From the NCBI GenBank assembly GCA_041687695.1, contig JAWLBL010000008.1, positions 32,074 through 96,073 of the forward strand: a stretch of DNA of 64,000 bases. Direction: 5' to 3'. Shown in pieces: positions 39,590 through 61,350 of this stretch. A program made the position numbers and the translations under genes. The notes under the pieces are model-generated. The model was given only the letters and a program-made list of their open reading frames with translations, searched no databases and was not told the origin of the DNA. The first letter of the stretch is position 1, and each line of letters begins with the position of its first letter. The DNA comes from Myxococcota bacterium. GTDB taxonomy: Bacteria > Myxococcota_A > UBA9042 > PHBI01 > JAWLBL01.

Positions 39590-42500
39590 CTATTCGAACA
39601 TCTCCGAGTACTCGATCTGGATGCCCATGTACTGCCGCAGGCTCAGGTACTGGTCGCTCATCGCGTACATCACCAGATCCTTGAGCTTGTCGGCCTTCTT
39701 GAGCTTGGACGTGCCGGCGACCTCCTCGCGCAGCAGGTGCCCGGCCAGCTCGACGTCGTCACACACGAGCAGCGCCGCGTGGATGGCCGTCAGCTCGACC
39801 TGGCGATGCCACAGGCCGATGTGCGGCACCCGCCCGGACTGCTTCATCTCGGCGATGACCTGCGCGAGCTGCGTGCGGTTCTGCGGCGTGATGTCCTTGT
39901 CGAGCGCGGCGCGCGTCTCCCCGACCTGCTGCGCGATCTGCATCTTCAGCTCGTCGGGCATGTCCGCCTGCAGCTGCAGCTTGTAGCTCGGGTCGATGAG
40001 CGCCTCGGCCGCCATGAACATGATGTCGAGCTGCTCACGCTGGAACAGCGCCGCCATGATGTGCGTGTTGGTCAGGTACATCAGGCGCCGGGCGAGGTGG
40101 AACGCGAGGTCCTTTTCGCCCTTGCCCTGCAGCATGTCCGGCCCGATGGACAGGACCGGCGGCTGCGTGTCGAGGATCTCGATGCCCATGCGGGTCGAGC
40201 TGCGGTAGACCTCGGGCGGCTGCAGCCCGAGGATGCGGCAGACCGAGTTGATGACCGAGCAGATGAGCAGGCCCTCGCTCAGATCGATGCGGTCCTTCTT
40301 CTTGAGCCCGTGCTCCTTGAGCTGCTTGAGCGGCAGGCTCTTGTACAGGGACGCGTAGAGGATCGCGAAGACCTGCCCGAGGTACGGGTCCTCCTGCTGG
40401 CTGGCGACCAGCTGCGACATCGCCGTGGCGTCGACGATGCGGTTGGTCTCGGCCACCGCGGCCGACTGATGGTCGCGGTAGAACCGCTCCTCGTCCGGCT
40501 CGGCCCGGTTGAGCGCCACCAGCAGCCCGGCCATGACCCACGCCTTGTCGTAGGCCTTCATCCGCTTATAGAGCTCGACCAGCTTGTGGTAGCTGTCGAA
40601 GCGGTCCGGGTGCTGCCGGATGAGGTAGCGGTGCTCCTCGACGGCCTTGTCCAGCTGGTCCGGCGTCGACTCGTACAGCCCCGCCAGGATCTCGTGGATG
40701 GCCTCGTCGTCCGGCTTGATCTTCCGCGCCAGCTCGAACGCGCTGATGGCGTAGTCCGTGCGCTTGAGGCGCGAGCGGTAGATCTCGCCCAGGTTGCGGT
40801 AGAGCATGAAGTTCACCGCGCCGTACTTGGGCCAGCTGGCGCCCGCCTTCTGCACGCGCTGCAGCATGCGGCGGTAGTTCTGCTCGAGCGGCTTCCACTC
40901 CTTGGCGTGCGTCAGCAGCTCGTCGATGGCGCGGAACGCCTCGAGCTTCTCGATGTTGTAGTCCAGCGTCAGGTTCAAGTACTTGATGGCCGACTCGCGG
41001 TCACCGACCTCGTCGCGGTAGGTGACGGCCGCCGTGTAGGCCCAGGTGGACTTGCGCCCGGCGTCCTCCTCGATCTCGATGATCTTGTTGATCCACCGGA
41101 TCGCCTCGTCGAAGTTGCGCCGCTCGATGTGCACCTGCACCAGCTGCATCAGCGGCGCCTTCGAGAAGTTCCCGTAGCCGACGGCCTTCTGGTAGGCCTC
41201 GACGGCCTTGTCCGGCTGGCGCAGGTTGTCGCGGAAGATGTCGGCGATCTTCAGCTGGATGTTGAACTTCGCGAGCGGCTCGGACTTGAGCGCCAGCAGC
41301 TGCTGCATGTAGCTGATGGCCCCCGCCCAGTCGCCGTGCGCCTCGAGCACCTCGACGATGCGCTCGATGGCGCCCGCGTTGTTCGGCTGGTGCTGGATGA
41401 CCCGCGACAGGTACGTCTGCGCCACCGAGATGCGGCCCAGCTTCAGCGCGCTCTCGCCGAGGTTCAGGTACAGCAGGACGAAGTCCTCGTCGCTGAGCTC
41501 GGACCCGTAGGTGTCGATGACCTGCTGGTAGTAGCGCAGCGCCTCGGAGTAGTTCTGCTTCTTGAAGTGCAGCCGGGCGAGGCCCCGCAGCGTCTCCTTG
41601 TCGGGGCTCGCGTGCTCCACCGCGGCCGAGTACTCGTCGAGCGCGCGGTCGTCGTCGTAGACGGCCTCGGCGCACTGGCCCAGGCGCTTGTGCACCTGCG
41701 CCAGCCGCTCGCGGTCGCCGCGCGCGTCGAGCTTGTCGACCAGCACGTCGAGCAGCGGCATCGCCTTGGTCCAGTTCCGCGTCGCCATGTAGTGGTCGGC
41801 GAGCGGCCACAGCGTCTCCTCGGACTCCGGGTTGGCCTGGACCGACAGCTCGAGGTGCTCGAGGGCGCGGCCCTCGTCGTGCAGCTTGTCGCGGAACAGC
41901 GACGCCAGCTCGACGTGCACGTCGGCGCGCGCGACGTCGTCCTGCGCGTGCTGCAGCTTGTGCTCGAGGGTCTCGAGCACCAGATCGAAGCGCTCCTCGT
42001 AGCTGTACAGATCGATGAGCGCCTGCACCGGCTGCGGGTGTCCCGGCCACTCGGCCAGCGCCTGCTTGTAGTGCTCGGCCGCCCCGAAGGCGTCGTTCAG
42101 CTCGTCGCGCCGGACCGAGCCCTGCTCGCAGTGCAGCGCGAGCCGCTCCTCGTGGCCCGACTCCACCGCCAGCGTGCGGTCGAGCGTCCCGATGAGCTGC
42201 TCCCACAGCCCCTGCTCGCGGTACAGATCCCGCAGCGCGTCCAGCGCCGGCCGGTGCCCGGGCGCCTCGCTCAGCGCGCGCTCGTAGCTGCCGATGGCGC
42301 TGTCCAGATCGCCGATCTGGTCGCGGTAGACCGCCGCCATCGCCATCAGCGCCTGCGCCCGCTCCTCGGCGGTCTGCGCCACGCCGCGCTTCTTCTCGTA
42401 CAGGTCGACCAGATCGTCCCAGCGCGACGTCTCGGCGAAGATGCGCTCCAAGGCCTCGATGGCCTCGGCGTCGTCCGGCACGATGTACAGGATGCGCTGG

Positions 42501-45500
42501 AAGGCCTCGGCCGCCTGCTCGGCGTCCTTGAACACCTCCTGCTGCAGCAGGGCGATGTTGCGGCACGCCTCGACGCGCTGCTCGTCGTTGGTCGCCGCGC
42601 CGTAGCTGCGCTCGAAGACGTCGACCAGCTTCGCCCAGTCGTTGCGCTCGCCGTAGATGCCCTGCAGCGCCTCGATGGCCACCGCGTTGTTCGGGTCGAC
42701 CGCCAGGACATCCTCGTAGACGCCGATGGCCTCGTCGATCTCGCCCAGGTTGCCTTCGAGGATCTGCGCGACGCGCAGCTTCAGCTCGCTCTCGCGCTGC
42801 GGCTCGACCCGCGAGACCCGCTCGAGGACGTCGATGAGCGCGCGCCAGTCGCCGCGCTCGGTGTGCAGCCGCTCGAGCGCGCCGAGCGCCTCGCGGTTGC
42901 TCTCGTCGACCTCGCAGATGGCCTCGTACGCGCCGACGGCCCGCTCACGGTCGCCGATGTTGTGCTCGAAGACCTCGGCCGCGCTCGACAGCAGGACCAC
43001 CTTCTCCTGGTAGTCCATCGTCACGTAGCTGAGGCGCTGCAGCACGTCGACGAGCTTCTCGAACTGCTCCAGATCGATGTTCAGGTCGACCAGCGCGCGC
43101 AGCGCAGGCTCGCTGTCCTCGGCGTGCTCGAGCACGCGCTCGAAGTAGGCCGCGGCGCTCGCCGGGTCCTGCAGCTTGTCGCGCTGCACGTAGGCGGCCT
43201 TCAGCATCGCGTCGAGGGCCGCGTCCGGATCGAGGTGCTCGATGACCCGGTCGTAGATGGCCAGCATCTCGGGCCACAGGCCCGTCAGCTCGGCCAGCCG
43301 CGCCAGCTCGCTCAGGACGTGCGGCTCCTCGGGCGCCTCGTCGATGGCCGACTCGAGGACCATGAACGCCCCGTCGGCCTGGCCGAGCTTGTGCTCGTAG
43401 AGGCCGGCCAGCCGCTGGAGGTTCATCAGGCGATCTTCCATGTCGCCCAGATGCGCGTTGCGGCTCGTCAGCAGCTGCGCCAGATCCGCCCACTGCTCGA
43501 AGGCCTCGTAGATCGCCTCGAGCCGCTGGCTCGCCTCGACGTTGTCGGGGGCGTGCGTCAGGATCTCGACGTAGGTCCCGGCGGCGGCCGCCTGGTCCTG
43601 CAGGCGCTCCTCCTGGATGGACGCCATGTGCAGCCAGGTCTCGATCTGCTGCGCCGCGTCCTCGGTGTAGCCCAGCTTCACCCGGTACAGCTCGACCAGA
43701 TCCGCCCAGCGCTCCTCGGACTCGTACAGGTTCTCGAGGTTCTCGATGGCGTCGGGCGCCCCGGGGGCCAGCTCCAGCACCGCCCGCCACGCGTCGATGC
43801 CCGCGGGCCGGTCGCCCAGCGGCTCGGTCCGCAGCTCGGCCAGCTCGCGCCACAGCGCGACCTGCGCCTCGACGTCGTAGTGGCCGCTCTCGAGCCGCGC
43901 CTCGATGCACCCGGCCAGCGCCTCGTGCGCGTAGTTGTCGCGGTAGATGACGTGCAGCGCCTCGAGGGTCTCGGCGTCGAACGCGTCCTCGGCCCGCGCC
44001 TTCTCCCAGTACATCTGCGCCTGCAGCCCGTCCTCGAGCTGCTGCTGCCAGGTGCGGCCGATGCGCTTGAACAGATCCAGCCGCCGCGCGGCGTCGCCCT
44101 GGCCCATCGCCAGCTCGCGCTCGTACGCCTCGACCAGCCCGTTCCAGTCCTCCTGGCCCTCGCGCAGCCGCTGCAGCTGCTGGACGGCCTCGAAGCTCTG
44201 CGGCGTGACCGCGAGCACGTCCTCCCACAGGTTGATGGCGTCCTCGACCTTGCCGAGGCACACCTCGGCGATCTCGGCCATGTCCGCCATGTAGCCGGCG
44301 CGCTCGGCGTCGTCGCCCGTCGTCTCCGACAGCTGCTGGAGGATCTCGAACAGGGCGGGCCAGTTCTCGTCCTCGTGGTACATCGTGCGCAGCGCCTGCA
44401 GCGCCTCGCCGTGCGTGTCGTTGATGTCGAGCACGCGCTTCCAGGCGTCGATGGCGTCCTCGCGGCGCCCCAGGCGGTCGCGGTACAGCTCGGCGAGCCG
44501 CACCAGCAGCTTCATGCGCTCGTCGTCGAACTCGGCGACGTCGGCCTCGCGGGCCAGCACGCCCTCGAGATCCTCCCAGCGCTCGGCGGCGACGTAGATG
44601 CGGTCCAGCGCCTGCAGCGCCGGGAAGTTCTCGCCGTCCTGGCCCAGGATGAGCAGGTAGACGCGCTCGGCCTCGGCGATGTCACCCAGGCGATCGCGCG
44701 TGATGGCGGCCGCGCGGCCCCACAGCTCGACCCGGCGCTCGTCGTCCTGCACGGCGTCGGCGCCGTCCATCAGGATGACCTTCACCTCGTCCCAGCGGTC
44801 GGTCTCCTCGGCGAGCGTGCGCAGCTGGACCAGCAGGCCCTCGTCCTCGGGGTCGAGGCGGAAGGCGTGGCCGAACCAGGCGATGGCCTCGGGCTTGCTG
44901 CCCAGGCGCTCGAGGTTCAGCTCGGCCAGCTGCCGCATGATCTGCAGGCGGTCGAGCGGGTCCTCGAGGACCTCGAGCTTGAGCTCGAGCAGCCCGTGCA
45001 GCTCCTCCCAGGCCCCGCGGCCCGTGTAGATGGGCTCCAGGCGCTCGGCGATGTCCAGGCGGTGGACGCCCGCCACGTACAGGCGCTGCAGCTCGGCGAT
45101 CGCGTCCTCGGACTGCTCGTCGAGGTACAGGACCTCCATGTAGGCGTCGAAGGCCCCGTCGGTGTCCTCGAGGCAGGCCTCGCAGACCTGCGCGAGCTTG
45201 AAGAGGAAGCCCATCTTCTCGGCGGGCTCGGTCTGCGTCTCGATCTGCTGGCGCAGCACCTCGACCAGCGGCTCGTACTGGCCCTGGGCCTCGTACAGGG
45301 CGTGCAGCCGCGCCAGGACCTCCTGGTGATCCGGGTAGTCCTCGAAGATCTTCTTGTAGACGTCGGTCGCGCGCGCCGCGTCCTGGACGCGGTCCATCAG
45401 CAGCGCGCCGGTCTTGAGGCGCAGCCGCTGCGCGAGCAGCTCGTCGTCGGTGTCCTCGGCGCCGGCCGCGTACAGCGCGACCAGGGCCTCGATCATCTCG

Positions 45501-48500
45501 TGCTCGTCGGCCAGCCGCTCGAGCTCGGCCACCGTCGTCGGGTGCTGCCGGTCCAGCTCGAAGGCGCGCGCCTGCGCCTCGAAGGCCCGCGTCGCGTCGA
45601 ACAGGCGCTTTTCGGCCAGCTGCGCCATCTGGTGCAGCGTCTCGACCTTGCGGAACGGGTCGTCCGACTGGTGCGCCGCGATGATCTCGTACTGCTGCCA
45701 CAGCGGCTCGAAGGCGTTCATCTCGGCCAGGACCGGGCGCAGCACCTCGAAGGCGGCCTCGCGCTCGTCGCGGCTCTCGATGATGGCCTCGAGCGACGCG
45801 ATGGCGCCCTCGTGGCCGGGCACGCGGCCCAGCAGCTCGCCGTAGGCGGCGATGGCCTGGCGCGGATCGCCCAGGCGCTCGTCGTCCTCGAACAGCTTGG
45901 CGACGCGGAACTGCGCCTCGGCCCAGCCGGCCTCGTCGAGCAGCGCCTGCATCTTCTGCAGGACGTCCAGCAGGTTGAACCAGTCCTCCTGCCGCGTGTA
46001 CAGCCCGTCCAGCTCGTGCAGGGCGCCCAGCTCGGCCGGATCCCACTCGAGGATCATCCGCCAGGTCATGACGGCGTCGTCGAGGCTCTCCTGCTTGCCG
46101 GCCTGCACGTGGCCCATGAGCGACGCGTAGTACTTGCGCGTGTCGAGGTCGGCCGCCCGCTCGATCTTCTGGCGGTATACGCCGATGAGCTGCTCCCAGT
46201 CCTCGACCCGCTCGTACAGCCCCTCGAGGGCCTCGAGGGCCAGATCGCCCGTCGTGTCGAGGTTATGCAGCGTCTCGTAGATCTCGATGGCGCTCTCGGG
46301 CGCGTCGAGCACGGTCGCGCTCAGCTCGCCGGCCTCGGCGTACAGGGCCTGCTTGTCGGCCATGTCGCCGACCATCGGCGCCTTGACCAGCAGCATCTCG
46401 ACCAGCTTGTCCGAGCGCTCGAGCTGGCGGTACAGCGCGACGAGGGCCTCGATGGCCGGCATGTCGCCCGGATCGAGCTCGAGGATGGCGCGCAGGTGCG
46501 CCTCGGCGCCCTCGACGTCGTGCGTCGTGTCGCGGCACAGGCTGGCGATGGTGCGGTGCGTCTCTCGGCGCCGGTAGTCGTCGTCGATGTCGTCGACCAG
46601 CCCCTTGAGCGACAGCACCAGCTCGCCGTGGTTGCCCAGCACGTCGGCGAGGCGCAGCAGGTGCGACAGCGTCCCCTCGCTGGCCGGATCGAGCGCGGCG
46701 GCCGCCAGGTAGTGCTCGAAGGCGGCGTCGGGGCGCTCGCCCATCGCCTCGTACAGATCGGCGATCTTGTAGCGCCAGTCGACCTTCTCGAAGACGTCGT
46801 CCGAGGCGGCCTCGCGGACCGTGTAGACGTCGATGAGCTTCACCCAGTCGCCGACGCGGTCGTAGTAGGGCTGCAGGATGGGCGCGATGGCCGGGGCGTG
46901 CTCGGGCGCCTCGAACAGGCGCTCCAGGGCCTCGACCGTGCCCATGTGCTCGGGCTCGAGGGTCAGGTTCTCGGCGTAGAGCGAGATGGCCGTCGCCACG
47001 TCCTCGAGCACGGTCTCGTGCAGGCTGGCGAGGCGCGTCTGGTAGACCACGTGCCGCGGCACGTCGCCGCGGACCAGGTTGATGGCGTCCTCGAGGATCT
47101 GCGCCAGCTCGGTCCACTGCTCGGTCGCCGTGTACAGCTCGTCGAGCCGCAGCAGGGCGTCCATGTTGCCGGGGACCAGGTCCAGCGCCTCGCGCGCCGC
47201 GACCACGGCCTCGTCGTGCTTGCCAAGCCCGTCGCGCAGCAGATCGCTGGTCCGGAACAGGTACTGCAGCTTCTGCTCGACGTCCTGGCTCAGCTCGATC
47301 TTGCGGCGGTAGATGTCGAGCAGATCCTCGGAGCGGTCGAGCGCCGCGTAGATGCCCTCGAGCGCGTCGATGGCCTCCTTGTGCTCGGGCTCCTCGTCGA
47401 GGACCTTGTGGTAGAACTGCCGCGCGTGCTCGAGGTCCTGCTCGCGGCGGTGGTAGGCGCGCGCCACCTCGAGCTTGATCGCCAGGCGCGCCAGCGGGTC
47501 GCCCGCCTCCTCGGCGTGCTCGGCGTACAGCGCGATGAGGGCCGGCCAGCGCTCGAGCTGCGCGGTCAGGCGCTGGAACTCGCCGCGCACGTCGGCGCGG
47601 TGCGGCTCGTGGGCGAACCAGCGGCCGTAGGTGCGCCAGGCGAGATCCAGGTCGTCCAGCGAGCTCTTGTACAGATCGGCCAGGCGCTCGAGCAGCGAGA
47701 CCTGCTCGTAGACGTCCTCGTCGGCCGCCGCGGCCAGCAGCTGGATCTCGAAGACCTCGGCCAGGCGCGCCCACTCGGCGCGGTCGCGGTAGACCGGCTC
47801 GAGGATGCGGGTGATGCGCAGGCGCTCGTCCTCGTCGGCGAGCAGCTCTTCCAGGCGCGCGACCGACTCGAGGTGCTGCGCGTCGTGACGCAGCGCCGCC
47901 TCGTAGTGATCGACCGCGACGCGCACGCCCTCGGCGTCGGGCTGCACGCCGTAGGCCAGCATGCCCAGCTCGCACTCGAGGTCGGCCAGGACCACGGCGT
48001 GCGCGCCCTGGGCGGCCAGGATGTCGCGCTTGCGCTCGAGGACCTCGCGCAGCGGCGCCCACCGCTGCTGCTCGAGCTGGATGGCGATGAGCGCGTCGTG
48101 GACCCGCGTCTCGTCCGGGAAGTCGTCCAGCATCTCCCGGTAGATGGCCTCGGCCTCCTCGGCCTGCCCCAGCGCCTCGCGCCAGACCGCCGCCAGCTGG
48201 AACAGCGTCTCCTTGCGCTCGTCGCCGCCCTGCGCGATGCGCAGCTGCTTGTCGTAGACGACGATCAGCTGGTCCCACGCGCCCAGGTCCCGGTACAGCC
48301 CCTCGAGCGCGGCCAGCGCGGCCCGGTTGCCGTCGTCGAGCTCGACGACGCGGTTGAAGAAGGTCAGCGCCGTCTCGGCGAGGCCCACGTGGTCGCGGTA
48401 GACGTGGCCGATCTCCAGCAGGACGCCGACCTTGTGGCCCTCGTCCTCGATGAGGTCGACCGTCTCCTGCAGGACCATCACGTAGCTGTCCCAGTTGCCC

Positions 48501-50410
48501 GACGCCTCGGCGAGGCGGCGCAGCTCGGGGTGCAGCGACACGGCGTTCGGCGACTCCTGGACCGCCTGCACGTAGGCGAAGAAGGCCGAGTCGACGTCCG
48601 AGAGGTGCTGCTCCTGGACCTCGGCCAGCGCGAGCAGGAGCTGCTGGCGCTCGGCGCGGTCCTCGGTCGCCTCGAGCACGATGTCGTAGACGTTGGGCAG
48701 CTCGGCCCACGACCCGACCTCGCGGTAGATCGGCACCATCATGCGCGCGGCGCCCGCGTGGCGCGGCTCGATCTCGAGCACGGACTCGAGGTTCTTGACG
48801 GCGCGGCGCGTGTCGCCCAGCTCGTCTTGCCACACCGCCGCCGCCTTGAAGAGCAGCGTCGTCGTCTCGGCCGGATCCTCGAGGCTCTTGGCCTGCGACT
48901 CGAGCGTGCGGACCCAGTCCTGCGCCGAGGCGTAGGTCCGGAAGAACCACTCGAGGTTGTCCCAGTCGCGCTCGGCCGTGTACTTCTTCTTGAGTTCGGC
49001 CTGCGCCTTGCGGTGCTCGGCGTCGAGCTCGAGCACGCGGCGCCAGACCTCGGCGGCGCGCGCGTCGTCCTCGAGGCGCGACGAGTAGACCTGGCCCAGC
49101 TTCTCGAGCAGCGCCACCTTGTCGGGGGCGAAGTCGCTCAGCTCGGCGCGGCGGTCGAGGATGCGGGCGAGGTCCTCGAAGCTCTTCTCGCGCTCGTAGA
49201 GCGTCTCGAGCTCACCCAGGGCCTCGGCGTGGTCGGGGTCGATGGTGAGGACCCGCTCCCACAGCGCGATGGGCGTCTGCGGCTTGCGGATGCGCTCGGA
49301 GGCCAGCTTGGCCAGCTTGATGTAGGCCGCGTCGCGATCGGCGCCCTCGGGCAGCAGGCCGACCTCGCGCTCGGCGACGACGATGTAGCTGTCCCAGTCG
49401 TGCCGGCTCTCGTAGATCTCTTTGAGGACGTCGATGCCCTTGCGGTTGGTCGGATCGATCTCGAGGATGGCCTCGTAGCTCTTGATGGCCTCGCTCGAGT
49501 TGTTGAACTTGTCGAGCATGATGGTGGCGACGCGCTCGTGCAGCGCGATCACCTGCGCCGTTTCGGCCTCGTGCTCGATCTTCTGCTTGAGCACCTTGAC
49601 CAGATCCGGCCACCGCTTCATCTCGTCGTACTCGGCGGCGAGCGCGTCGAGCGCCTGCGTGTTGCCGGGCTCGAGCTCGAGGATCGCCTGCCAGGACCCG
49701 ACCACCTTCGACGCCGCGTTGAGGTGCGTCTTGAAGATGTCGATCATCTCGAGGTGCAGCGCGATGGCCTCGCTCACCTGATCCGCGCCGAGGCGGCCCA
49801 GGTTGTTCTTGAGCAGATCCACCATCGCGTGCCACTTGCCGACCTCGGCGAACAGGCGCCGCAGCGCGCCCTCGGCCTCGAGATCGTTCGGGTCCGCGGT
49901 GTACACGGCCTGCCAGAAGCCGACCGCCTTGTCCGGCTTGCCCCGCTCCTCGGCGAGGCGGGCGAGGACGCGCTTGCACTCGACCGGGTCCTCGATGCCG
50001 CCCATCTGCGGCTCGCTCAGGAACTGCTCGAGGCGCCGCCAGTTGTCCTGCTCGACGTAGAAGTCGATGTAGAACTCGCGCAGCAGCGACGGATCGCTGG
50101 GCGCGCTCTTCATCTTGCGGAACATCATCTCGGCCTTCTGGGCCGAGTCGAACGCCTTCCACAGCAGCAGGCCGTTCTGGTAGTGCAGGTAGGACGCGAC
50201 GTCGTCGTCCTTGGCCGTGCGCGCCTGCTGCGCCAGGATCTGGAACAGGCGGCTGGCCTCGCCCTCGGGCGCCCACTCGGGCAGCGAGGCGTAGAGGCTC
50301 CCCAGGGTGCCCTGGTCGTTCTCCGTGACCAGGTGTTTCACCAACGCTTCGAAAGCCTTGTGATCCGTAGGGTTGGCTTTGAAGGCTTCGAAGAGCTCGG
50401 TAGTGCTCAT
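39590..50410 (-). CDS. Giant tetratricopeptide-repeat protein (3606 aa; ~85 degenerate 38-40-aa TPR-like repeats plus a ~400-aa non-repeat C-terminal domain)
   Basis: Uninterrupted 10.8-kb ORF with diverse, protein-like composition and high GC3; recurring pattern A…W.RVLE.DP.N.EAL..L..LY……W..L; the co-located plus-strand 3597-aa ORF is the R/L/V/G-rich antisense shadow. Confidence 0.85.
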   Translation of the reverse strand: MSTTELFEAFKANPTDHKAFEALVKHLVTENDQGTLGSLYASLPEWAPEGEASRLFQILAQQARTAKDDDVASYLHYQNGLLLWKAFDSAQKAEMMFRKMKSAPSDPSLLREFYIDFYVEQDNWRRLEQFLSEPQMGGIEDPVECKRVLARLAEERGKPDKAVGFWQAVYTADPNDLEAEGALRRLFAEVGKWHAMVDLLKNNLGRLGADQVSEAIALHLEMIDIFKTHLNAASKVVGSWQAILELEPGNTQALDALAAEYDEMKRWPDLVKVLKQKIEHEAETAQVIALHERVATIMLDKFNNSSEAIKSYEAILEIDPTNRKGIDVLKEIYESRHDWDSYIVVAEREVGLLPEGADRDAAYIKLAKLASERIRKPQTPIALWERVLTIDPDHAEALGELETLYEREKSFEDLARILDRRAELSDFAPDKVALLEKLGQVYSSRLEDDARAAEVWRRVLELDAEHRKAQAELKKKYTAERDWDNLEWFFRTYASAQDWVRTLESQAKSLEDPAETTTLLFKAAAVWQDELGDTRRAVKNLESVLEIEPRHAGAARMMVPIYREVGSWAELPNVYDIVLEATEDRAERQQLLLALAEVQEQHLSDVDSAFFAYVQAVQESPNAVSLHPELRRLAEASGNWDSYVMVLQETVDLIEDEGHKVGVLLEIGHVYRDHVGLAETALTFFNRVVELDDGNRAALAALEGLYRDLGAWDQLIVVYDKQLRIAQGGDERKETLFQLAAVWREALGQAEEAEAIYREMLDDFPDETRVHDALIAIQLEQQRWAPLREVLERKRDILAAQGAHAVVLADLECELGMLAYGVQPDAEGVRVAVDHYEAALRHDAQHLESVARLEELLADEDERLRITRILEPVYRDRAEWARLAEVFEIQLLAAAADEDVYEQVSLLERLADLYKSSLDDLDLAWRTYGRWFAHEPHRADVRGEFQRLTAQLERWPALIALYAEHAEEAGDPLARLAIKLEVARAYHRREQDLEHARQFYHKVLDEEPEHKEAIDALEGIYAALDRSEDLLDIYRRKIELSQDVEQKLQYLFRTSDLLRDGLGKHDEAVVAAREALDLVPGNMDALLRLDELYTATEQWTELAQILEDAINLVRGDVPRHVVYQTRLASLHETVLEDVATAISLYAENLTLEPEHMGTVEALERLFEAPEHAPAIAPILQPYYDRVGDWVKLIDVYTVREAASDDVFEKVDWRYKIADLYEAMGERPDAAFEHYLAAAALDPASEGTLSHLLRLADVLGNHGELVLSLKGLVDDIDDDYRRRETHRTIASLCRDTTHDVEGAEAHLRAILELDPGDMPAIEALVALYRQLERSDKLVEMLLVKAPMVGDMADKQALYAEAGELSATVLDAPESAIEIYETLHNLDTTGDLALEALEGLYERVEDWEQLIGVYRQKIERAADLDTRKYYASLMGHVQAGKQESLDDAVMTWRMILEWDPAELGALHELDGLYTRQEDWFNLLDVLQKMQALLDEAGWAEAQFRVAKLFEDDERLGDPRQAIAAYGELLGRVPGHEGAIASLEAIIESRDEREAAFEVLRPVLAEMNAFEPLWQQYEIIAAHQSDDPFRKVETLHQMAQLAEKRLFDATRAFEAQARAFELDRQHPTTVAELERLADEHEMIEALVALYAAGAEDTDDELLAQRLRLKTGALLMDRVQDAARATDVYKKIFEDYPDHQEVLARLHALYEAQGQYEPLVEVLRQQIETQTEPAEKMGFLFKLAQVCEACLEDTDGAFDAYMEVLYLDEQSEDAIAELQRLYVAGVHRLDIAERLEPIYTGRGAWEELHGLLELKLEVLEDPLDRLQIMRQLAELNLERLGSKPEAIAWFGHAFRLDPEDEGLLVQLRTLAEETDRWDEVKVILMDGADAVQDDERRVELWGRAAAITRDRLGDIAEAERVYLLILGQDGENFPALQALDRIYVAAERWEDLEGVLAREADVAEFDDERMKLLVRLAELYRDRLGRREDAIDAWKRVLDINDTHGEALQALRTMYHEDENWPALFEILQQLSETTGDDAERAGYMADMAEIAEVCLGKVEDAINLWEDVLAVTPQSFEAVQQLQRLREGQEDWNGLVEAYERELAMGQGDAARRLDLFKRIGRTWQQQLEDGLQAQMYWEKARAEDAFDAETLEALHVIYRDNYAHEALAGCIEARLESGHYDVEAQVALWRELAELRTEPLGDRPAGIDAWRAVLELAPGAPDAIENLENLYESEERWADLVELYRVKLGYTEDAAQQIETWLHMASIQEERLQDQAAAAGTYVEILTHAPDNVEASQRLEAIYEAFEQWADLAQLLTSRNAHLGDMEDRLMNLQRLAGLYEHKLGQADGAFMVLESAIDEAPEEPHVLSELARLAELTGLWPEMLAIYDRVIEHLDPDAALDAMLKAAYVQRDKLQDPASAAAYFERVLEHAEDSEPALRALVDLNIDLEQFEKLVDVLQRLSYVTMDYQEKVVLLSSAAEVFEHNIGDRERAVGAYEAICEVDESNREALGALERLHTERGDWRALIDVLERVSRVEPQRESELKLRVAQILEGNLGEIDEAIGVYEDVLAVDPNNAVAIEALQGIYGERNDWAKLVDVFERSYGAATNDEQRVEACRNIALLQQEVFKDAEQAAEAFQRILYIVPDDAEAIEALERIFAETSRWDDLVDLYEKKRGVAQTAEERAQALMAMAAVYRDQIGDLDSAIGSYERALSEAPGHRPALDALRDLYREQGLWEQLIGTLDRTLAVESGHEERLALHCEQGSVRRDELNDAFGAAEHYKQALAEWPGHPQPVQALIDLYSYEERFDLVLETLEHKLQHAQDDVARADVHVELASLFRDKLHDEGRALEHLELSVQANPESEETLWPLADHYMATRNWTKAMPLLDVLVDKLDARGDRERLAQVHKRLGQCAEAVYDDDRALDEYSAAVEHASPDKETLRGLARLHFKKQNYSEALRYYQQVIDTYGSELSDEDFVLLYLNLGESALKLGRISVAQTYLSRVIQHQPNNAGAIERIVEVLEAHGDWAGAISYMQQLLALKSEPLAKFNIQLKIADIFRDNLRQPDKAVEAYQKAVGYGNFSKAPLMQLVQVHIERRNFDEAIRWINKIIEIEEDAGRKSTWAYTAAVTYRDEVGDRESAIKYLNLTLDYNIEKLEAFRAIDELLTHAKEWKPLEQNYRRMLQRVQKAGASWPKYGAVNFMLYRNLGEIYRSRLKRTDYAISAFELARKIKPDDEAIHEILAGLYESTPDQLDKAVEEHRYLIRQHPDRFDSYHKLVELYKRMKAYDKAWVMAGLLVALNRAEPDEERFYRDHQSAAVAETNRIVDATAMSQLVASQQEDPYLGQVFAILYASLYKSLPLKQLKEHGLKKKDRIDLSEGLLICSVINSVCRILGLQPPEVYRSSTRMGIEILDTQPPVLSIGPDMLQGKGEKDLAFHLARRLMYLTNTHIMAALFQREQLDIMFMAAEALIDPSYKLQLQADMPDELKMQIAQQVGETRAALDKDITPQNRTQLAQVIAEMKQSGRVPHIGLWHRQVELTAIHAALLVCDDVELAGHLLREEVAGTSKLKKADKLKDLVMYAMSDQYLSLRQYMGIQIEYSEMFE

Positions 50411-55254: not shown

Positions 55255-55560
55255 GTGGCCACGGCCTACGGCCTCGGCGACGGCCACGGCCTACGGCCTC
55301 GGCCACGGCCTACGGCCTCGGCCACGGCCTACGGCCTCGGCGACGGCCACGGCCTACGGCCTCGGCGACGGCCTCGGCGACGGCCACGGCCTACGGCCTC
55401 GGCGACGGCCTCGGCGACGGCCACGGCCTACGGCCTCGGCCACGGCCTACGGCCTCGGCGACGGCCTACGGCCTCGGCGACGGCCACGGCCTACGGCCTC
55501 GGCGACGGCCACGGCCTACGGCCTCGGCCACGGTCTCGGCGACGGCCACGGTAGCCGGCC
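55255..55560. repeat. GC-rich hexamer/heptamer microsatellite (CCACGG / CCTACGG / CCTCGG / CGACGG units), related to the array at 15850..16165
   Basis: Read directly: ggccacggcctacggcctcggcgacggccacggcctacggcctcggcc… for ~300 bp between tetR (start 54786) and the 3' end of the FAAL gene; mixed 6/7-nt units preclude coding. Confidence 0.85.
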
Positions 55561-55767: not shown

Positions 55768-57567
55768 TCAGCGACGGCCCAGGGCGACGCGGCCGATGAA
55801 GCTGCGGACGTAGGCCAGTTGGCTCGAGGCGAGGTGCTTGACCGCCGTGAGGCGTCCGGCCTCGGCCGTCAGGCGACCCAGCGTGCCCTCGGCGTACAGC
55901 TCGGCGGCCTTGCGCCGCTGCAGCTTGCCCGAGCTGGTCTTCGGCAGGCCGCCCGGCGGCAGGACGACGATGTCCGCCACCTTCAGGCCCATCCCCTCGC
56001 TCACCGCCGCGCGCACGCTCTGCGCGACCTCCTCGTGGTCGGCGTCCTTGCGCGCCTCGAGGACCAGCACCAGCTCCTCGGTGTCGCCGCGCGCGGCGCC
56101 GAAGGCGATGGCGTTGCCGGTGCGCACCCCGGGCAGCTCCCAGACCAGGTGCTCGATGTCCTGCGGGTAGTAGTTCTTGCCGCCGATGATGATGAGCTCC
56201 TTTTTGCGCCCGCAGACGTAGACCTCGCCATCGGCGATGTAGCCAAGGTCGCCCGTGTGCAGCCAGCCGCCCCGCAGGACCTGGGCCGTGGCTTCGGCGT
56301 TGTCGAAGTAGCCCGGCATGATGCTGGGGCCGCGCACCACGATCTCGCCCACGGCGCGCTCGCCCAGCTGGCGCCCGGCGTCGTCGACCACGGCGATGGC
56401 GTGCTTGGAGAAGGGCTTGCCGCAGCTGACGATGCGCTGCGCTTCGCCGTCGGGCAGGGGCCGCGCCGCCTCGTGGCGGTGCACCAGCGCCTGCGCGTCG
56501 ACCAGATCGGTGCGCATCCCGGTGCCCGGGTCGGCGAAGCTGACCGCCAGCGTCGCCTCGGCCATGCCGTACGACGGGAACAGGCTGCTCGCCGAGAAGC
56601 CGGCGGGGCCGAAGCGGTCCACGAAGGCCTCGAGGGTGTCGGGGCGGATGGGCTCGGCGCCGCAGCCGGCGATGCGCCAGCTCGACAGATCCAGGCGGGC
56701 CAGCTGCTCGTCGCGCACACGCCGGGTGCACAGGCCGTAGGCGAAGTTCGGCGCGTAGGTGATGGTGCCCTTGTGACGGCTGATGGCCTCGAGCCACAGG
56801 TGCGGGCGCTTCAGGAAGGTCAGCGGCGCCATGCTGACCATGCGGACCTGATAGAAGAAGGGGGTCAGCACGAAGCCGATGAGCCCCATGTCGTGGTACA
56901 GCGGCAACCACGACACGCCGCAGTCGTCCGGGCCGACGCTCAGCGCCTCGCCGCCGATGCAGCGGCTGTTCTCGGCGAGGCCCCCGTGGGTGACCATCAC
57001 GCCCTTGGGGCGCGAGGTGGAGCCCGAGGTGAACTGGATGAAGCACAGGTCCTCGGGCGCGACCTCGGCCATCGGCGCCTCGGGGCCCGGGCCGGTCAGC
57101 GCGTCGACGACGGCGACCTCGCGCAGATCGGGGCACTGCACGAGCAGGCTGCCGAGCACCTTGTGGACCGTCTTGTCGGTGACGACGCCCTTGGCGCGGG
57201 CGGCGCGGACGATGTGGACCGCGTTGTCCAGGTAGCCGCCCAGCTTGCCGAGGCCCAGCGGGGGGTAGATGGGCACCGGGACCACGCCGGTCCAGATGGC
57301 GCCCAGGAACACCGACAGGAAGTCCTCGGTCTCGGGCAGCACCACGACCAGCCGGTCACCTTTGCGGTAACCGCGTTGCCCCAGCTGGTGGGCCACGCGG
57401 CGGGCGCGCCGGACCAGCTCCGCATAGGGCACCATGCGCTCGCCGCCGGCTTCGTCGATGAACGTGTATCCGTGGGACTCGACCGCGCCGGCCGCGGCGA
57501 TGGCCGCGCTGAGGGTCGGGTGGGGGGGCTCGCAGGCGGGGGCGGGGCCCTCTAGGATGACCGCCAT
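55768..57567 (-). CDS. Fatty acyl-AMP ligase-like adenylate-forming enzyme (candidate acyl-ACP synthetase)
   Basis: 599 aa; AMP-binding motifs FTSGSTSRPKGVMVTH, YGMAEA, GWLHTGDLG, and FAAL-type N-terminus; near the ACP and AOS genes. Confidence 0.85.
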   Translation of the reverse strand: MAVILEGPAPACEPPHPTLSAAIAAAGAVESHGYTFIDEAGGERMVPYAELVRRARRVAHQLGQRGYRKGDRLVVVLPETEDFLSVFLGAIWTGVVPVPIYPPLGLGKLGGYLDNAVHIVRAARAKGVVTDKTVHKVLGSLLVQCPDLREVAVVDALTGPGPEAPMAEVAPEDLCFIQFTSGSTSRPKGVMVTHGGLAENSRCIGGEALSVGPDDCGVSWLPLYHDMGLIGFVLTPFFYQVRMVSMAPLTFLKRPHLWLEAISRHKGTITYAPNFAYGLCTRRVRDEQLARLDLSSWRIAGCGAEPIRPDTLEAFVDRFGPAGFSASSLFPSYGMAEATLAVSFADPGTGMRTDLVDAQALVHRHEAARPLPDGEAQRIVSCGKPFSKHAIAVVDDAGRQLGERAVGEIVVRGPSIMPGYFDNAEATAQVLRGGWLHTGDLGYIADGEVYVCGRKKELIIIGGKNYYPQDIEHLVWELPGVRTGNAIAFGAARGDTEELVLVLEARKDADHEEVAQSVRAAVSEGMGLKVADIVVLPPGGLPKTSSGKLQRRKAAELYAEGTLGRLTAEAGRLTAVKHLASSQLAYVRSFIGRVALGRR

Positions 57568-57802
57568 GGCTGGGCGCCTCCGTACCGAGCAAGCGCTCGG
57601 AAAGTCAATGATTTCAAGGTTGAACGGAAGTGGCGCGGAAGCTACCCGCCCCCCCGGTGGGTGTCAAACCGAAACCACGATGGGCGCGGCGGCCGCGTCG
57701 CGGCGGGTTTCGCCAAAACGAAACGGGCGCCAGCGGCCCGGAGCCGCGCCCCCAGTGGCCGCGATGGCCCTCCAGACGCCCTGCCGGCTGGGCCGCGGGC
57801 CA

Positions 57803-57831
57803 TTGACCCCGCCGCCCGCGCCGCCTATAAG
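57803..57831 (+). promoter_or_regulatory. Sigma70-like promoter for the OmpA-TSP3 gene (-35 TTGACC, 17 nt, -10 TATAAG)
   Basis: cattgaccccgccgcccgcgccgccTATAAGcgc about 65 nt upstream of ATG 57895. Confidence 0.4.
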
Positions 57832-57894
57832 CGCCCGGTTGCAACGAGGCGGATGGCCGCGGCGCGTCGCGAGCCACCCTGCGCGGAGTGCGTG

Positions 57895-59154
57895 ATGCCC
57901 AGAGCTCTTCAGTCCCTCCTGGCCGCGGCCGTCGTCGCGGCGACCCCCGCCGTCGCGTCCGCGCAGTCGGCCGTCACCGCCCGCTCCGCCGACCTCGGCG
58001 TCGACATGGGCGGCCTGTTCTTCCTCGGCGGCGCCGAAGGCCTCAGCGACACGTTCGCCTACCGGATCGCGGGCGCCTACAACTTCACGCGCCACATCGC
58101 CGCCCACCTGGGCGTCGACTTCTCACCGCGCGAGGTCAACCAGGTCTCGGTGACCCACGTGCACCTCGCGGCCCTGTACCGCCCGCTCTCGCACGCCTGG
58201 TTCGTCCCGTTCGTCGGCGCCGGCCCCAGCCTCGCCGTGACCACGCCCAAGGACGGCGACGCCGACGTCGACCCGGCGGTCAGCGCGATGGCCGGCGTCG
58301 ACCTGTACCCCTGGGAGCGCGTCGGCTTCCGCGCCTCCACGCGCTACATGGCGCGCTTCGGCACCGACGACGACGAGACGACCTCGCACGACCTCATCGC
58401 CTCGCTGGGCATGTTCGTCACCTTCGGCGACCAGGCCCCGACCGGGCCCATCCTGCTCGACACCGACGGCGACGGCTTCCTCGATCCCGACGACCTGTGC
58501 GTCAACGTCCCGGGCCACGCCAGCGCCCAGGGCTGCCCCGACATCGACGGCGACACCATCGTCGACGCGGACGACCGCTGCCCGAACGACCCCGGCACCA
58601 AGGCCCTCGCCGGCTGCCCCGACAAGGACGGCGACGACATCGCGGATCTGGACGACCGCTGCCCCGACGTCCCCGGCACGCCGGCCCACAAGGGCTGCCC
58701 CGACCTCGACGGCGACGACATCGCCGATCTGGACGACCGCTGCCCCAAGATCCCGGGTGACAAGCGCTTCGGCGGCTGCCCGCCGCCGCCGCCCGAGGAG
58801 GTCGTCAAGAAGTACTCGGGCGCCATCGCCGGCATCACCTTCAAGTACGACTCGGCCGAGATCGAGCCCAGCTCCTTCCCGGTGCTCGACGAGGCGGCGG
58901 CCGTGCTGGCCGAGTACGCGCACCTGGTCGTGCTCATCGAGGGCCACACCTCGGCCGAGGGCAGCGCCCAGTACAACCAGGAGCTGTCGCAGCGCCGCGC
59001 CGAGTCGGTCCGCCAGTACCTGGTGGACAAGGGCATCGCGGCCGAGCGCCTGCAGGCCAAGGGCTTCGGCAAGGACAACCCGGTGGCGACCAACGACACC
59101 GAGGAAGGCCGCGCCCAGAACCGCCGCATCGAGTTCAAGATCCTCGTCCAGTAG
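57895..59154 (+). CDS. OmpA-family outer-membrane protein with thrombospondin type-3 (TSP3) Ca-binding repeats
   Basis: Internal ATG of ORF 57661..59154; signal peptide …AVASAQSA; N-terminal beta-barrel region; repeats DTDGDGFLDPDDLC / DIDGDTIVDADDRCPNDPG / DKDGDDIADLDDRCPDVPG / DLDGDDIADLDDRCPKIPG; C-terminal OmpA domain (…NQELSQRRAESV…NRRIEF). Confidence 0.85.
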   Translation: MPRALQSLLAAAVVAATPAVASAQSAVTARSADLGVDMGGLFFLGGAEGLSDTFAYRIAGAYNFTRHIAAHLGVDFSPREVNQVSVTHVHLAALYRPLSHAWFVPFVGAGPSLAVTTPKDGDADVDPAVSAMAGVDLYPWERVGFRASTRYMARFGTDDDETTSHDLIASLGMFVTFGDQAPTGPILLDTDGDGFLDPDDLCVNVPGHASAQGCPDIDGDTIVDADDRCPNDPGTKALAGCPDKDGDDIADLDDRCPDVPGTPAHKGCPDLDGDDIADLDDRCPKIPGDKRFGGCPPPPPEEVVKKYSGAIAGITFKYDSAEIEPSSFPVLDEAAAVLAEYAHLVVLIEGHTSAEGSAQYNQELSQRRAESVRQYLVDKGIAAERLQAKGFGKDNPVATNDTEEGRAQNRRIEFKILVQ

Positions 59155-59264
59155 CGTTCGAGCCTGCGGTGGCCCGCGGCGGCGCGCTCGGAGATGCCTC
59201 CGGCGCGCCGCTCGCGCATCCGGGCCCGGCCGCCAGGACCGAACGCCCGTTCTGGAAAACCCCT

Positions 59265-59293
59265 TTGACATCGCGGGCCCGGCGCCCTATGCC
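59265..59293 (+). promoter_or_regulatory. Candidate sigma70-like promoter for ACP-AOS operon (-35 TTGACA, 17 nt, -10 TATGCC)
   Basis: cctTTGACAtcgcgggcccggcgcccTATGCCggt about 65 nt upstream of ACP ATG. Confidence 0.35.
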
Positions 59294-59358
59294 GGTGCCC
59301 TCCCGAGGCCGCCCTCCGGGCGCGGCCTCTCTCCCCGAGACAGCGAGCGGAAAGAGAC

Positions 59359-59595
59359 ATGGCGAACGTGGACGTCGTGGCGCTGTTCAAGCGCGTCGCC
59401 TCCGAGGTCGAGCGCAAGGACTTCTCGAACATCACCCGCGACACGCGCGTGACCGACCTGGGCGTGGACTCCGTCACGATGATGGAGATCGTCGGGATGA
59501 TGGAGGACGAGCTCGGCATCCAGATCCCGGACACCAAGCTGTCGGGGCTGCAGACCGTGGGCGACATCGAGCGCGTCGTCCTCGAGCGCCTGTAG
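59359..59595 (+). CDS. Acyl carrier protein (stand-alone, likely dedicated to the adjacent alpha-oxoamine synthase)
   Basis: 78 aa; phosphopantetheine-attachment motif DLGVDSV. Confidence 0.85.
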   Translation: MANVDVVALFKRVASEVERKDFSNITRDTRVTDLGVDSVTMMEIVGMMEDELGIQIPDTKLSGLQTVGDIERVVLERL

Positions 59596-59605
59596 GGATC
59601 GGGCG

Positions 59606-60967
59606 ATGAGCAAGGACACGGCCGGCGAGTCGCCCGCCGGGGCCGTCGGCGCGCCGGACGCGCTGACCCCCGAGGCCGAGCAGGAGCTGTTCGCCCTGGG
59701 GCTGCGGCTCCTCAACAAGGACTACTTCGTCGGCGAGTACTGCCCGCAGAACGGCGTCGACGCCAAGGACCCCTTCGCGAAGGCGCGCCTGTTCGACGGC
59801 ATCATCGGCTCGCTCAAGGGCACCGGCCGCTTCTTGTTCGGCATGCCCATCGTGTCCAAGCCGGGCCCCCGGGTGACGGTCGAGGACCACGAGGGGCGGC
59901 GGCGCGAGCTGACCATGTTCGCGTCGAACGACTACCTGGGCCTGTCCGCCGACCCGCGCACCCACGAGGCCATCCGCGGGGCGCTCGACGAGTACGGCAT
60001 CGGCGCCGGCTCGAGCCGCGTCAACGTCGGCTACAGCGGCATCCACCGCGCGCTCGAGGCCAAGCTCGCCGACCGCTGGGGCAAGCAGGCGGCCCTGCTG
60101 TTCCCGACCGGCTTCGACGCCGTGTCCAGCACCATCGCCGCGCTGGCGGGCCCGAACGACCGCGTCATCATCGACGCGTCGAGCCACGCCTGCATCATCG
60201 ACGGCGCGCGCCGCTCGGGCGCCACGGTGCGCCTGTTCAAGCACAACGACCCCGAGCGCCTCGAGATGCAGCTGCAGCGCGCGGCCGAGGCCGAGGGCGG
60301 CACGCTGGTCGTCGTCGAGGGCGCCTACAGCATGGACGGCGACATCGCGCGCCTCGACGCCATCGTCCCGCTCTGCAAGAAGTACGGCGCACGGCTGATG
60401 GTCGACGAGGCCCACGCCATCGGCGTCCGCGGCGCCAAGGGCCACGGCGTGGCCGAGCACTTCGGCCTGTCGGACGAGGTCGACATCATCGCGGGCACCT
60501 TCTCGAAGTCGCTGGGTGCCACGGGCGGCTTCGTCGCGTCCAGCCGAGAGGTCGTCACCTACCTCAACTACCTGTCGACCCGCATCGTCTTCTCGGCCGC
60601 CTTCCCGCCCATCCTCGCCCGCGCCGTCTCGCGCGCCATCGACATCATGGAGGAGGACGAGGCCCTGCGCGGGCGCCTGTGGGACAACATCCGCTACTTC
60701 GCGGACGGCTTCCGCAAGATGGGCGTCGACATGCCCGAGGTGCAGGTCGGCGCCGTGCCGCTGCGCATCCACCGCGACGAGATCATGGTGACCTTCGCCG
60801 GGGATCTCTTCGACGCGGGCGTCTTCGCCTATCCGGTGGTCTACCCGACCGTGCCGCTGGGCAAGAGCATGTTCCGCCTGGCGATGCAGTCGGGCCACAC
60901 GCGCGCGCACCTCGACCACGCGCTCGAGGTCTTCCGGGGGCTGCTGGGCAAGTACGGCGTCCTCTAG
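59606..60967 (+). CDS. Alpha-oxoamine synthase family PLP enzyme, serine palmitoyltransferase-like (candidate Spt)
   Basis: 453 aa; PLP-lysine motif GTFSKSLGATGG; class-II aminotransferase fold as in Spt/BioF/Kbl; immediately downstream of a dedicated ACP and near an FAAL gene. Confidence 0.8.
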   Translation: MSKDTAGESPAGAVGAPDALTPEAEQELFALGLRLLNKDYFVGEYCPQNGVDAKDPFAKARLFDGIIGSLKGTGRFLFGMPIVSKPGPRVTVEDHEGRRRELTMFASNDYLGLSADPRTHEAIRGALDEYGIGAGSSRVNVGYSGIHRALEAKLADRWGKQAALLFPTGFDAVSSTIAALAGPNDRVIIDASSHACIIDGARRSGATVRLFKHNDPERLEMQLQRAAEAEGGTLVVVEGAYSMDGDIARLDAIVPLCKKYGARLMVDEAHAIGVRGAKGHGVAEHFGLSDEVDIIAGTFSKSLGATGGFVASSREVVTYLNYLSTRIVFSAAFPPILARAVSRAIDIMEEDEALRGRLWDNIRYFADGFRKMGVDMPEVQVGAVPLRIHRDEIMVTFAGDLFDAGVFAYPVVYPTVPLGKSMFRLAMQSGHTRAHLDHALEVFRGLLGKYGVL

Positions 60968-61350
60968 GTCGAGGACTCGGGCTCGTGGTCGATGATGACC
61001 GGGGGCTCGCGGCGCGCGCCCAGGGGACGCAGGCCGCGGCGCTCGCGGACCTCGTCCAGGTTGTGGCGGACCAGCTCGCCCAGATCGTCGACGATGGGGC
61101 CCAGCTTGCGGACCAGGCGCAGCTCCAGCTCGGCGACCTGCTGCAGCGTGCCGGCCACCAGATCCAGGCGGTCCATCACCTGCTCGGCGCGCCCCAGCAG
61201 GCGCAGGCCGGCCTCGCGGACCCGCGGGTCGACGGGGACGGCCTCGGCGCTGAGCAGCGCGTTCGCCAGGCGTAGCAGGCCGCGCGGGGCCGACAGCGCG
61301 CGGGGCGGCTGGGGCTCGGGCGGCGTCGGGGGCGTGTCGTCTTGGGCCAT
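60964..61350 (-). CDS. Hypothetical coiled-coil protein
   Basis: 128-aa ORF between aos and gloB; protein-like composition; no recognised motif. Confidence 0.4.
   Translation of the reverse strand: MAQDDTPPTPPEPQPPRALSAPRGLLRLANALLSAEAVPVDPRVREAGLRLLGRAEQVMDRLDLVAGTLQQVAELELRLVRKLGPIVDDLGELVRHNLDEVRERRGLRPLGARREPPVIIDHEPESST

Follow-up and report, generated by a model that had tools for sequence, protein, structure and literature searches.

To our knowledge, bacterial sphingolipid synthesis was worked out only in 2021–2022, and the feeding route through AasR, a fatty acyl-AMP ligase (FAAL), and AcpR, an acyl carrier protein (ACP), is so far established in alpha-, beta- and gamma-proteobacteria alone. 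In the Rhodobacterial AasR-AcpR-SPT system (Caulobacter CC_1165/CC_1163/CC_1162; E. coli BL21 ECD_02851/02853/02854; PMC9386255), AasR (ECD_02851), AcpR and serine palmitoyltransferase (SPT) jointly make 3-oxo-sphinganine, as Padilla-Gomez et al. showed experimentally, and the Caulobacter AasR acylates AcpR, but neither coenzyme A (CoA) nor the housekeeping ACPs (PMC9386255). Here we analyze a 64,000-nucleotide stretch of contig JAWLBL010000008.1 from a Myxococcota bacterium (assembly GCA_041687695.1), hereafter the window, which at positions 55768–60967 encodes the same three protein types: a FAAL, an ACP and an alpha-oxoamine synthase (AOS), with the ACP gene again directly upstream of the AOS gene. 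We consider it probable that these proteins form a three-protein unit that starts the synthesis of a long-chain amino lipid, a serine-derived 3-keto long-chain base being the likely product.

A locus with the parts of a probable sphingolipid-initiation system

The original prediction placed four genes in this locus, and all four are found where it had placed them. Their positions, and those of the two intergenic regions between them, are as follows.

55768–57567, minus strand: FAAL, 599 amino acids (aa), a putative dedicated AasR-like acyl-ACP synthetase (Pfam AMP-binding, E 7e-67)
57568–57894: divergent intergenic region between the FAAL and OmpA-like genes, 327 bp, presumed from its sequence to hold promoters
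57895–59154, plus strand: OmpA-like outer-membrane protein, 419 aa (Pfam OMP_b-brl and OmpA)
59155–59358: gap between the OmpA-like and ACP genes, 204 bp, speculatively a promoter region for ACP and AOS
59359–59595, plus strand: dedicated ACP, 78 aa (PP-binding, E 6e-12; phosphopantetheine site Ser38)
59606–60967, plus strand: SPT-like AOS, 453 aa (Aminotran_1_2, E 3e-59; pyridoxal phosphate (PLP) lysine K301)

The window has a G+C content of 72%, and because the G+C content at third codon positions is 0.96–0.99 in all four open reading frames, we take them to be real genes; the same genes appear in an independent public gene call (GCA_041690335.1, JAWLHM010000004.1). As predicted, the FAAL gene is divergent and begins about 1.8 kb from the ACP gene (the two starts are 1.79 kb apart). 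The prediction of an ACP with a DSV motif directly upstream of an AOS with a GTFSKSLG motif is likewise borne out: the motifs read LGVDS38V and G297TFSK301SLG, and only 10 bp separate the ACP stop from the AOS start.

In the pathway that we propose, the FAAL would adenylate a free long-chain fatty acid. Since it would, like other FAALs, be unable to pass the acyl group to CoA, it would load this group onto the phosphopantetheine arm of the 78-aa ACP. On the PLP-dependent AOS, which would be translationally coupled to the ACP, an amino acid (L-serine being the likeliest) would become an external aldimine; its condensation with the acyl-ACP would set free CO2 and holo-ACP and yield a 3-keto long-chain base of the 3-ketosphinganine type, which might later be converted to a ceramide. 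By analogy, the unit would follow the logic by which AasR, AcpR and SPT work in Caulobacter and E. coli B, but around an AOS of a different, uncharacterised lineage.

The comparison with described systems brings out both the shared parts and the differences. The ligase belongs to the AasR family (3PBK; NF006624) and is 36% identical to E. coli BL21 AasR over its full length. The AOS, at 36% identity to E. coli SPT, belongs to another clade, and the ACP is weakly similar to AcpR. In E. coli BL21(DE3), the five genes of the sphingolipid cluster are all adjacent (in the order yghO, fatty acyl-AMP ligase, epimerase, acyl carrier protein, spt), whereas the window locus has neither an epimerase/CerR gene nor a YghO/bCerS gene, its FAAL gene is divergent and an OmpA-like gene lies in between. 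The closest match to the AOS, in sequence and in fold, is the SPT of Sphingobacterium multivorum (SmSPT; 3A2B/8GUH), in which GTFSKSL is identical; that enzyme, however, was studied with acyl-CoA, has no dedicated FAAL and ACP, and does not have the ∼45 N-terminal residues of the window AOS. SulA of Alistipes finegoldii (7U7H; PMC9304779) is an AOS of the same fold that uses acyl-ACP to start a sphingolipid-like lipid, but it relies on the housekeeping ACP without a dedicated FAAL and carries Lys281 where the window AOS has Ala331.

The nearest named homologues of the FAAL come from Polyangia (Sorangium, Nannocystis, Minicystis and Labilithrix; 47–51% identity). In cultured myxobacteria, such FAALs are paired with a small ACP in operons (Sorangium, Nannocystis; MXAN_6637/6636 and sce7052/7053 in PMC9386255) in which the ACP gene is directly upstream of the FAAL gene and no AOS gene lies within 10 kb; in the window, the ACP is instead paired with the AOS. 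The overlapping or adjacent ACP-FAAL pairs that we find in Sorangium (locus L096, 9735–11806) and Nannocystis (locus L097, 9714–11770), again with no AOS gene within 10 kb, have the two-gene arrangement described for the myxobacterial AcpR/AasR homologues (PMC9386255). The type of system is known (PMC9386255); new here are an AOS clade with an N-terminal extension, an occurrence outside Rhodobacteria, and the absence of clustered ceramide genes.

The ligase and carrier protein are linked to the synthase across lineages

The FAAL is assigned to its family by several comparisons. Its best NCBIfam match among 106 families is NF006624, ‘fatty acyl-AMP ligase’, with a score of 541 bits, short of the cut-off of 600; on this model, E. 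coli AasR reaches 870. Its top match in the Protein Data Bank (PDB) is 3PBK (377 bits), which is itself E. coli BL21 AasR (1273 bits over the full length against the ligase of the cluster), and a direct comparison of the window FAAL with AasR yields 353 bits. The FAAL-specific insertion in the N-terminal domain, ∼25–30 residues long (alignment columns ∼398–440), is common to the window FAAL and four other FAALs, including E. coli AasR, and is absent from E. coli FadD. The FAAL of the syntenic locus L086 is 59% identical.

The ACP scores under every housekeeping-ACP cut-off and fits the description of an AcpR-type protein: it is a small PP-binding protein with a DS(L/V) serine, and its gene lies directly upstream of the AOS gene. 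The ACPs beside the AOS genes of the clade form their own group (42–57% identical to the window ACP), and those of the Bdellovibrionota-type and Xanthomonadaceae loci are at the upper end of this range (51–57%). Identity is lower to the Sorangium/Nannocystis type of ACP (37–38%) and, over 45–48 aa, to E. coli AcpR (33%).

That the three genes work together is best supported by their linkage. A FAAL gene, an ACP gene and an AOS gene of the same clade are adjacent in eight loci (the window, L086, L002, L003, L006, L007, L008 and L087). Wherever the context of a clade locus suffices, which is so in nine loci, FAAL and ACP are linked to the AOS; six of the nine belong to distant lineages. The loci related to the window are arranged as follows; MAG stands for metagenome-assembled genome.

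L086 (AOS ∼70% identical): FAAL on the minus strand, then OmpA, ACP and AOS on the plus strand, with a 19-bp spacing and an overlap
L085 (AOS ∼70% identical): OmpA, ACP and AOS, 6 and 3 bp apart; the contig stops before the FAAL position
L002, L006, L007, L008 and L087 (Bdellovibrionota and similar): CMAS-type methyltransferase, ACP, FAAL and fatty-acid desaturase in one block, with AOS divergent from it
L003 (Xanthomonadaceae MAG): ACP, FAAL, desaturase and FA_hydroxylase, with AOS divergent from them
L004 and L005 (Leptospiria MAG): AOS with neither FAAL nor ACP

The additional partners in these loci, a desaturase, a CMAS-type methyltransferase and an FA_hydroxylase, are enzyme types known to modify lipid chains. 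Their presence suggests that the acyl chains in question are modified, whether unsaturated, methylated or hydroxylated. In three of the loci (L002 5953–9854, L003 6200–9898 and L087 5893–9828), a DesA-like desaturase comes after the ACP-FAAL pair and scores 210 bits on the Delta5 DesA model, below its cut-off; the same three loci also carry the CMAS-type methyltransferase or the FA_hydroxylase.

The linkage also bears on a different use of the FAAL and ACP. FAAL-ACP pairs commonly start lipopeptide and polyketide assembly, and the FAAL's PDB matches after 3PBK are polyketide-synthase loading domains (7r7g, 327 bits), followed by 3kxw (284 bits), a chain deposited as ‘Saframycin Mx1 synthetase B’. 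The FAAL and ACP could accordingly be the lipid-loading start of a lipopeptide- or polyketide-type secondary metabolism, with the AOS as a tailoring or chain-release enzyme. We regard this as improbable: the window and the 10 kb around each related locus contain no polyketide synthase, non-ribosomal peptide synthetase or other assembly-line gene, housekeeping genes flank the locus (GloB, FKBP, ClpB and peptidoglycan enzymes), and the conserved partners elsewhere are modifiers of lipid chains only.

Lineage and probable substrate of the alpha-oxoamine synthase

The AOS belongs to the alpha-oxoamine synthase family (PLP fold type I), and its catalytic set is intact. Residues H194, S242, D267, H270, T298, S300, K301 and R424 are all present, and H194, D267, H270, K301 and R424 align with H138, D210, H213, K244 and the conserved arginine of SmSPT. 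Structures of SmSPT assign the binding of PLP and substrate to N52, Y54, S81, H138, S185, D210, H213, T241, S243 and K244 (PMC10196870); the equivalents of these residues, and of A274, are all conserved in the AOS. The motif GTFSKSL is also identical in E. coli SPT. One loop differs, reading G-S-S-R in the AOS and x-G-S-R in SPTs, with a serine in place of SmSPT Gly80.

A search of 5.8 billion proteins found ∼80 relatives of the AOS at 48–74% identity, below which identity drops sharply to ≤44%. Almost all of them come from metagenomes or MAGs, labelled as marine ‘Deltaproteobacteria bacterium’, Bdellovibrionaceae, Pseudobdellovibrionaceae, a Xanthomonadaceae MAG and a Leptospiria MAG, and no AOS of this type from a named cultured myxobacterium is among the best 120 matches. 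Scanning species-representative genomes with the clade alignment recovered at least four clade members together with many distant AOS genes. In a neighbour-joining tree (159 sequences, 393 columns, 100 bootstraps), whose references came from PDB alignments and annotated records of E. coli, Bacillus, Acinetobacter and Agrobacterium, the AOS clade has a bootstrap support of 100% and nearly all of its members are from uncultured bacteria. It adjoins three unnamed proteins and then, through nodes with a support of only 3–30%, a group that contains the Sm, Sp and Ec SPTs and the AOS of locus L018.

Among solved structures, the sequence comparisons favour SPT. The single AOS sequence scores best against SmSPT (259 bits, compared with 229 for Kbl), and a profile of the clade built from 31 relatives scores 353.5 bits on SmSPT, 292 on Kbl and 291 on cysteate acyltransferase. 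Identity is ∼36–40% to SmSPT. An AlphaFold model of the AOS (mean predicted local distance difference test, pLDDT, of 88.8) has 3A2B as its top Foldseek match, with a TM-score of 0.94 normalised to the target. The position of Ala331 is more discriminating. It aligns with SmSPT Ala274 and with Lys281 of SulA, the cysteate acyl-ACP transferase, whose lysine occupies the alanine position of SPTs (PMC9304779). The column holds alanine in 35 of 35 clade members and in 26 of 26 members of the SPT-reference group, and threonine or asparagine in all 24 members of the BioF/Kbl/ALAS group.

These data allow us to weigh whether the AOS is a housekeeping BioF or Kbl that lies near a FAAL and an ACP by coincidence. 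The highest NCBIfam score of the AOS is indeed to the bioF model (TIGR00858, 336 bits), its score on Kbl (NF005394) is 318 bits, and Joint Genome Institute pipelines label its relatives ‘8-amino-7-oxononanoate synthase’ or ‘glycine C-acetyltransferase’. Both scores, however, are below the models' cut-offs (426 and 460), and the E. coli B SPT scores 333 on the same bioF model. The tree places BioF, Kbl and ALAS elsewhere, Ala331 replaces their threonine or asparagine, and the linkage to FAAL and ACP recurs in unrelated lineages. The original prediction had named biotin- or threonine-pathway neighbours as a sign against itself; no bioA, bioB, bioD or tdh gene was found in the window or in locus L001. 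A coincidental BioF or Kbl is therefore very improbable.

The more serious alternative concerns the product. The same FAAL-ACP-AOS chemistry may use a non-serine amino acid (glycine, alanine, threonine, cysteate or another), or its free long-chain base may never be made into ceramide; the product could then be, for example, a 1-deoxy long-chain base or a capnine-like sulfonolipid precursor. The clade is distinct and has no characterised member, no ceramide genes are near, and the loop reads G-S-S-R in place of the x-G-S-R of SPTs. Clade members also share ∼45 conserved N-terminal residues, modelled in the AOS as two helices (residues 25–48), that the compared bacterial SPT references do not have. 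Moreover, an AOS that draws on acyl-ACP is already known in the cysteate acyl-ACP transferase (PMC9304779). Against these points, the lysine that marks the cysteate enzyme is an alanine here, the Ala331 column agrees with SPTs and disagrees with Kbl, ALAS and BioF, which use glycine or alanine, and SmSPT leads every non-SPT by 61 bits in the clade-profile scores. We judge this alternative possible but distinctly less likely than a serine-derived product.

Several observations weigh against a serine-derived, ceramide-forming system. The AOS scores below the cut-offs of all SPT equivalog models (NF047600 CFB, 326 against 640 bits; NF047599 beta, 317 against 500; NF047603 alpha, 234 against 670); a control, the E. 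coli B SPT, passes only its own model (599 against 500) and scores 340 on the CFB model, and because this proven SPT gives the same cross-scores, such scores are uninformative. Foldseek ranks SPT, Kbl, ThAOS and ALAS nearly equally and, since all AOS folds score almost alike, the fold cannot separate an SPT from Kbl or ALAS. In the phylogeny, which the original prediction had proposed as its check against Spt, BioF, Kbl and HemA, the AOS falls outside the BioF/Kbl/ALAS group, but the nodes that join its clade to the SPT group have bootstrap values of 3–30%. The serine selectivity of SPT rests largely on the PLP phosphate and a water network (PMC10196870), so the amino-acid substrate is not a property that sequence can prove, and an SPT look-alike from Nostoc made no 3-ketosphinganine when tested (PMC8895605). 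In addition, the 204-bp gap between the OmpA-like and ACP genes and the opposite strand of the FAAL gene make co-regulation in the window a presumption.

The ceramide genes themselves belong to the same list. We searched the loci by tblastn, with E. coli BL21 YghO and the epimerase of its cluster as queries, and by Pfam; the positive control, locus L018, was recovered. Neither a YghO/bCerS-like nor a CerR-like gene turned up in the 64-kb window, the 7 kb past its end, L001 or the clade loci with 10 kb around them, apart from a 26%-identical epimerase in L002; this speaks for these regions and not for the rest of the genome. From the gene order, YghO is presumably the ‘aca’ acyl-CoA N-acyltransferase of PMC9386255. 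The original prediction fares differently in its two parts. Its three-component reading, with an acyl-ACP synthetase, a dedicated ACP and an SPT-like AOS, is sustained by the AasR homology, the FAAL insertion, the recurrent linkage, SmSPT as the best relative and Ala331. The step from these components to sphingolipid initiation is weakened by the AOS scores below the SPT cut-offs, its membership in a clade of its own and the lack of ceramide genes nearby.

The consequences may extend beyond this locus. On one reading, possible though less likely than not, the AOS would form with its 34 aligned relatives an unstudied SPT-like lineage of its own, marked by the two-helix N-terminal extension and always accompanied by its own FAAL and ACP, which occurs in Myxococcota-like bacteria of marine origin, in Bdellovibrionota and in a few further lineages without cultured members; it may make long-chain-base lipids without the known bCerS or CerR, and its marine branch may co-express an OmpA-type protein. 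The window locus and its relatives suggest that the ‘private acyl pool’ logic also serves a different SPT-like lineage in other, mostly uncultured phyla. If this is confirmed, there would be more likely producers of sphingolipids or long-chain bases in marine communities, a role open to testing could be given to the orphan ACP-FAAL operons of myxobacteria, and the three genes would be a compact set that leads from free fatty acids to long-chain bases. If the product is not derived from serine, the clade would mark a new class of amino lipid.

Two other AOS loci were seen in these comparisons. Locus L018 (6411–17161), from a delta-proteobacterial MAG, combines an epimerase, an AOS, a MacB/FtsX-ABC-OEP exporter, a YghO (bCerS-like) gene and a GT4 glycosyltransferase, and is apparently a complete glycosphingolipid cluster; it has neither a FAAL nor an ACP, and its AOS is 34% identical to that of the window. 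Locus L091 (2836–4071), on a conjugative Bacteroides thetaiotaomicron plasmid, encodes an unnamed AOS with a GTFSKSF motif and an alanine at the SPT-type position, with an adjoining TetR gene and a MAC/perforin-domain gene ∼2.7 kb away. This plasmid AOS (H28) was considered as an SPT reference but dropped, being an unnamed AOS beside a MACPF gene.

The OmpA-like gene, candidate promoters and surrounding genes

The OmpA-like protein has a signal peptide, a beta-barrel, four DxDxDGxxDxxDxC TSP3-type calcium-binding repeats and a C-terminal, peptidoglycan-binding OmpA domain. The original prediction regarded its gene as inserted between the FAAL and ACP genes. Orthologues (50–56% identity), however, lie directly upstream of ACP and AOS in both L085 and L086, where OmpA, ACP and AOS are 6–19 bp apart or overlapping; the order FAAL, OmpA, ACP, AOS is kept in L086 and the order OmpA, ACP, AOS in L085. 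Because it is conserved next to ACP and AOS in the two closest relatives, the gene is not an insertion. The synteny of the window with L085 and L086 takes in unrelated genes as well (GloB, FKBP, an amidase with a GNAT protein), and may therefore reflect relatedness alone. We note the conservation of the OmpA-like gene, and we do not claim that it shares a function with the lipid genes.

A scan for sigma-70 consensus promoters called none in the locus, including the divergent region at 57568–57894, and its terminator predictions were discarded since they fell inside genes or on the wrong strand. A GGAG ribosome-binding site lies 5′ of the OmpA ATG at 57895. Upstream of the ACP gene, at 59265–59293, the sequence TTGACA-17 nt-TATGCC may be a separate promoter for ACP and AOS, a speculative reading of the sequence; the scan requires a T at position 6 of the second hexamer, so TATGCC was not called. 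The corresponding gap upstream of the ACP gene in L085 and L086 is only 6–19 bp.

On the 3′ side, the AOS gene is followed by a convergent gene and then by a hydroxyacylglutathione hydrolase. The convergent gene is described below.

60964–61350, minus strand: 128-aa Ala/Arg/Pro-rich protein, convergent with the AOS gene and overlapping it by 4 bp

This protein has no Pfam or NCBIfam match, and a 52%-identical homologue occupies the same position in L086. On the upstream side of the locus are a TetR regulator, a patatin-like lipase, an LD-carboxypeptidase, a beta-lactamase-fold protein and a single 3606-aa TPR-repeat protein (39590–50410, minus strand). A tandem repeat at 55257–55551 (∼12–16 copies with a period of 25 or 19 nt, unit GGCCACGGCCTACGGCCTCGGCGAC, 80–84% matches) lies in the 980 bp without genes that separate the TetR gene from the FAAL 3′ end. 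Farther away, 48 kb from the locus, a DAGK_cat lipid-kinase-like protein (10839–11783, plus strand) matches the MamU lipid kinase weakly (34 bits), and its gene adjoins that of a glyoxylate-reductase-like dehydrogenase. A T4 gp19-like tail-tube protein (25979–26680, minus strand) may belong to a contractile injection system.

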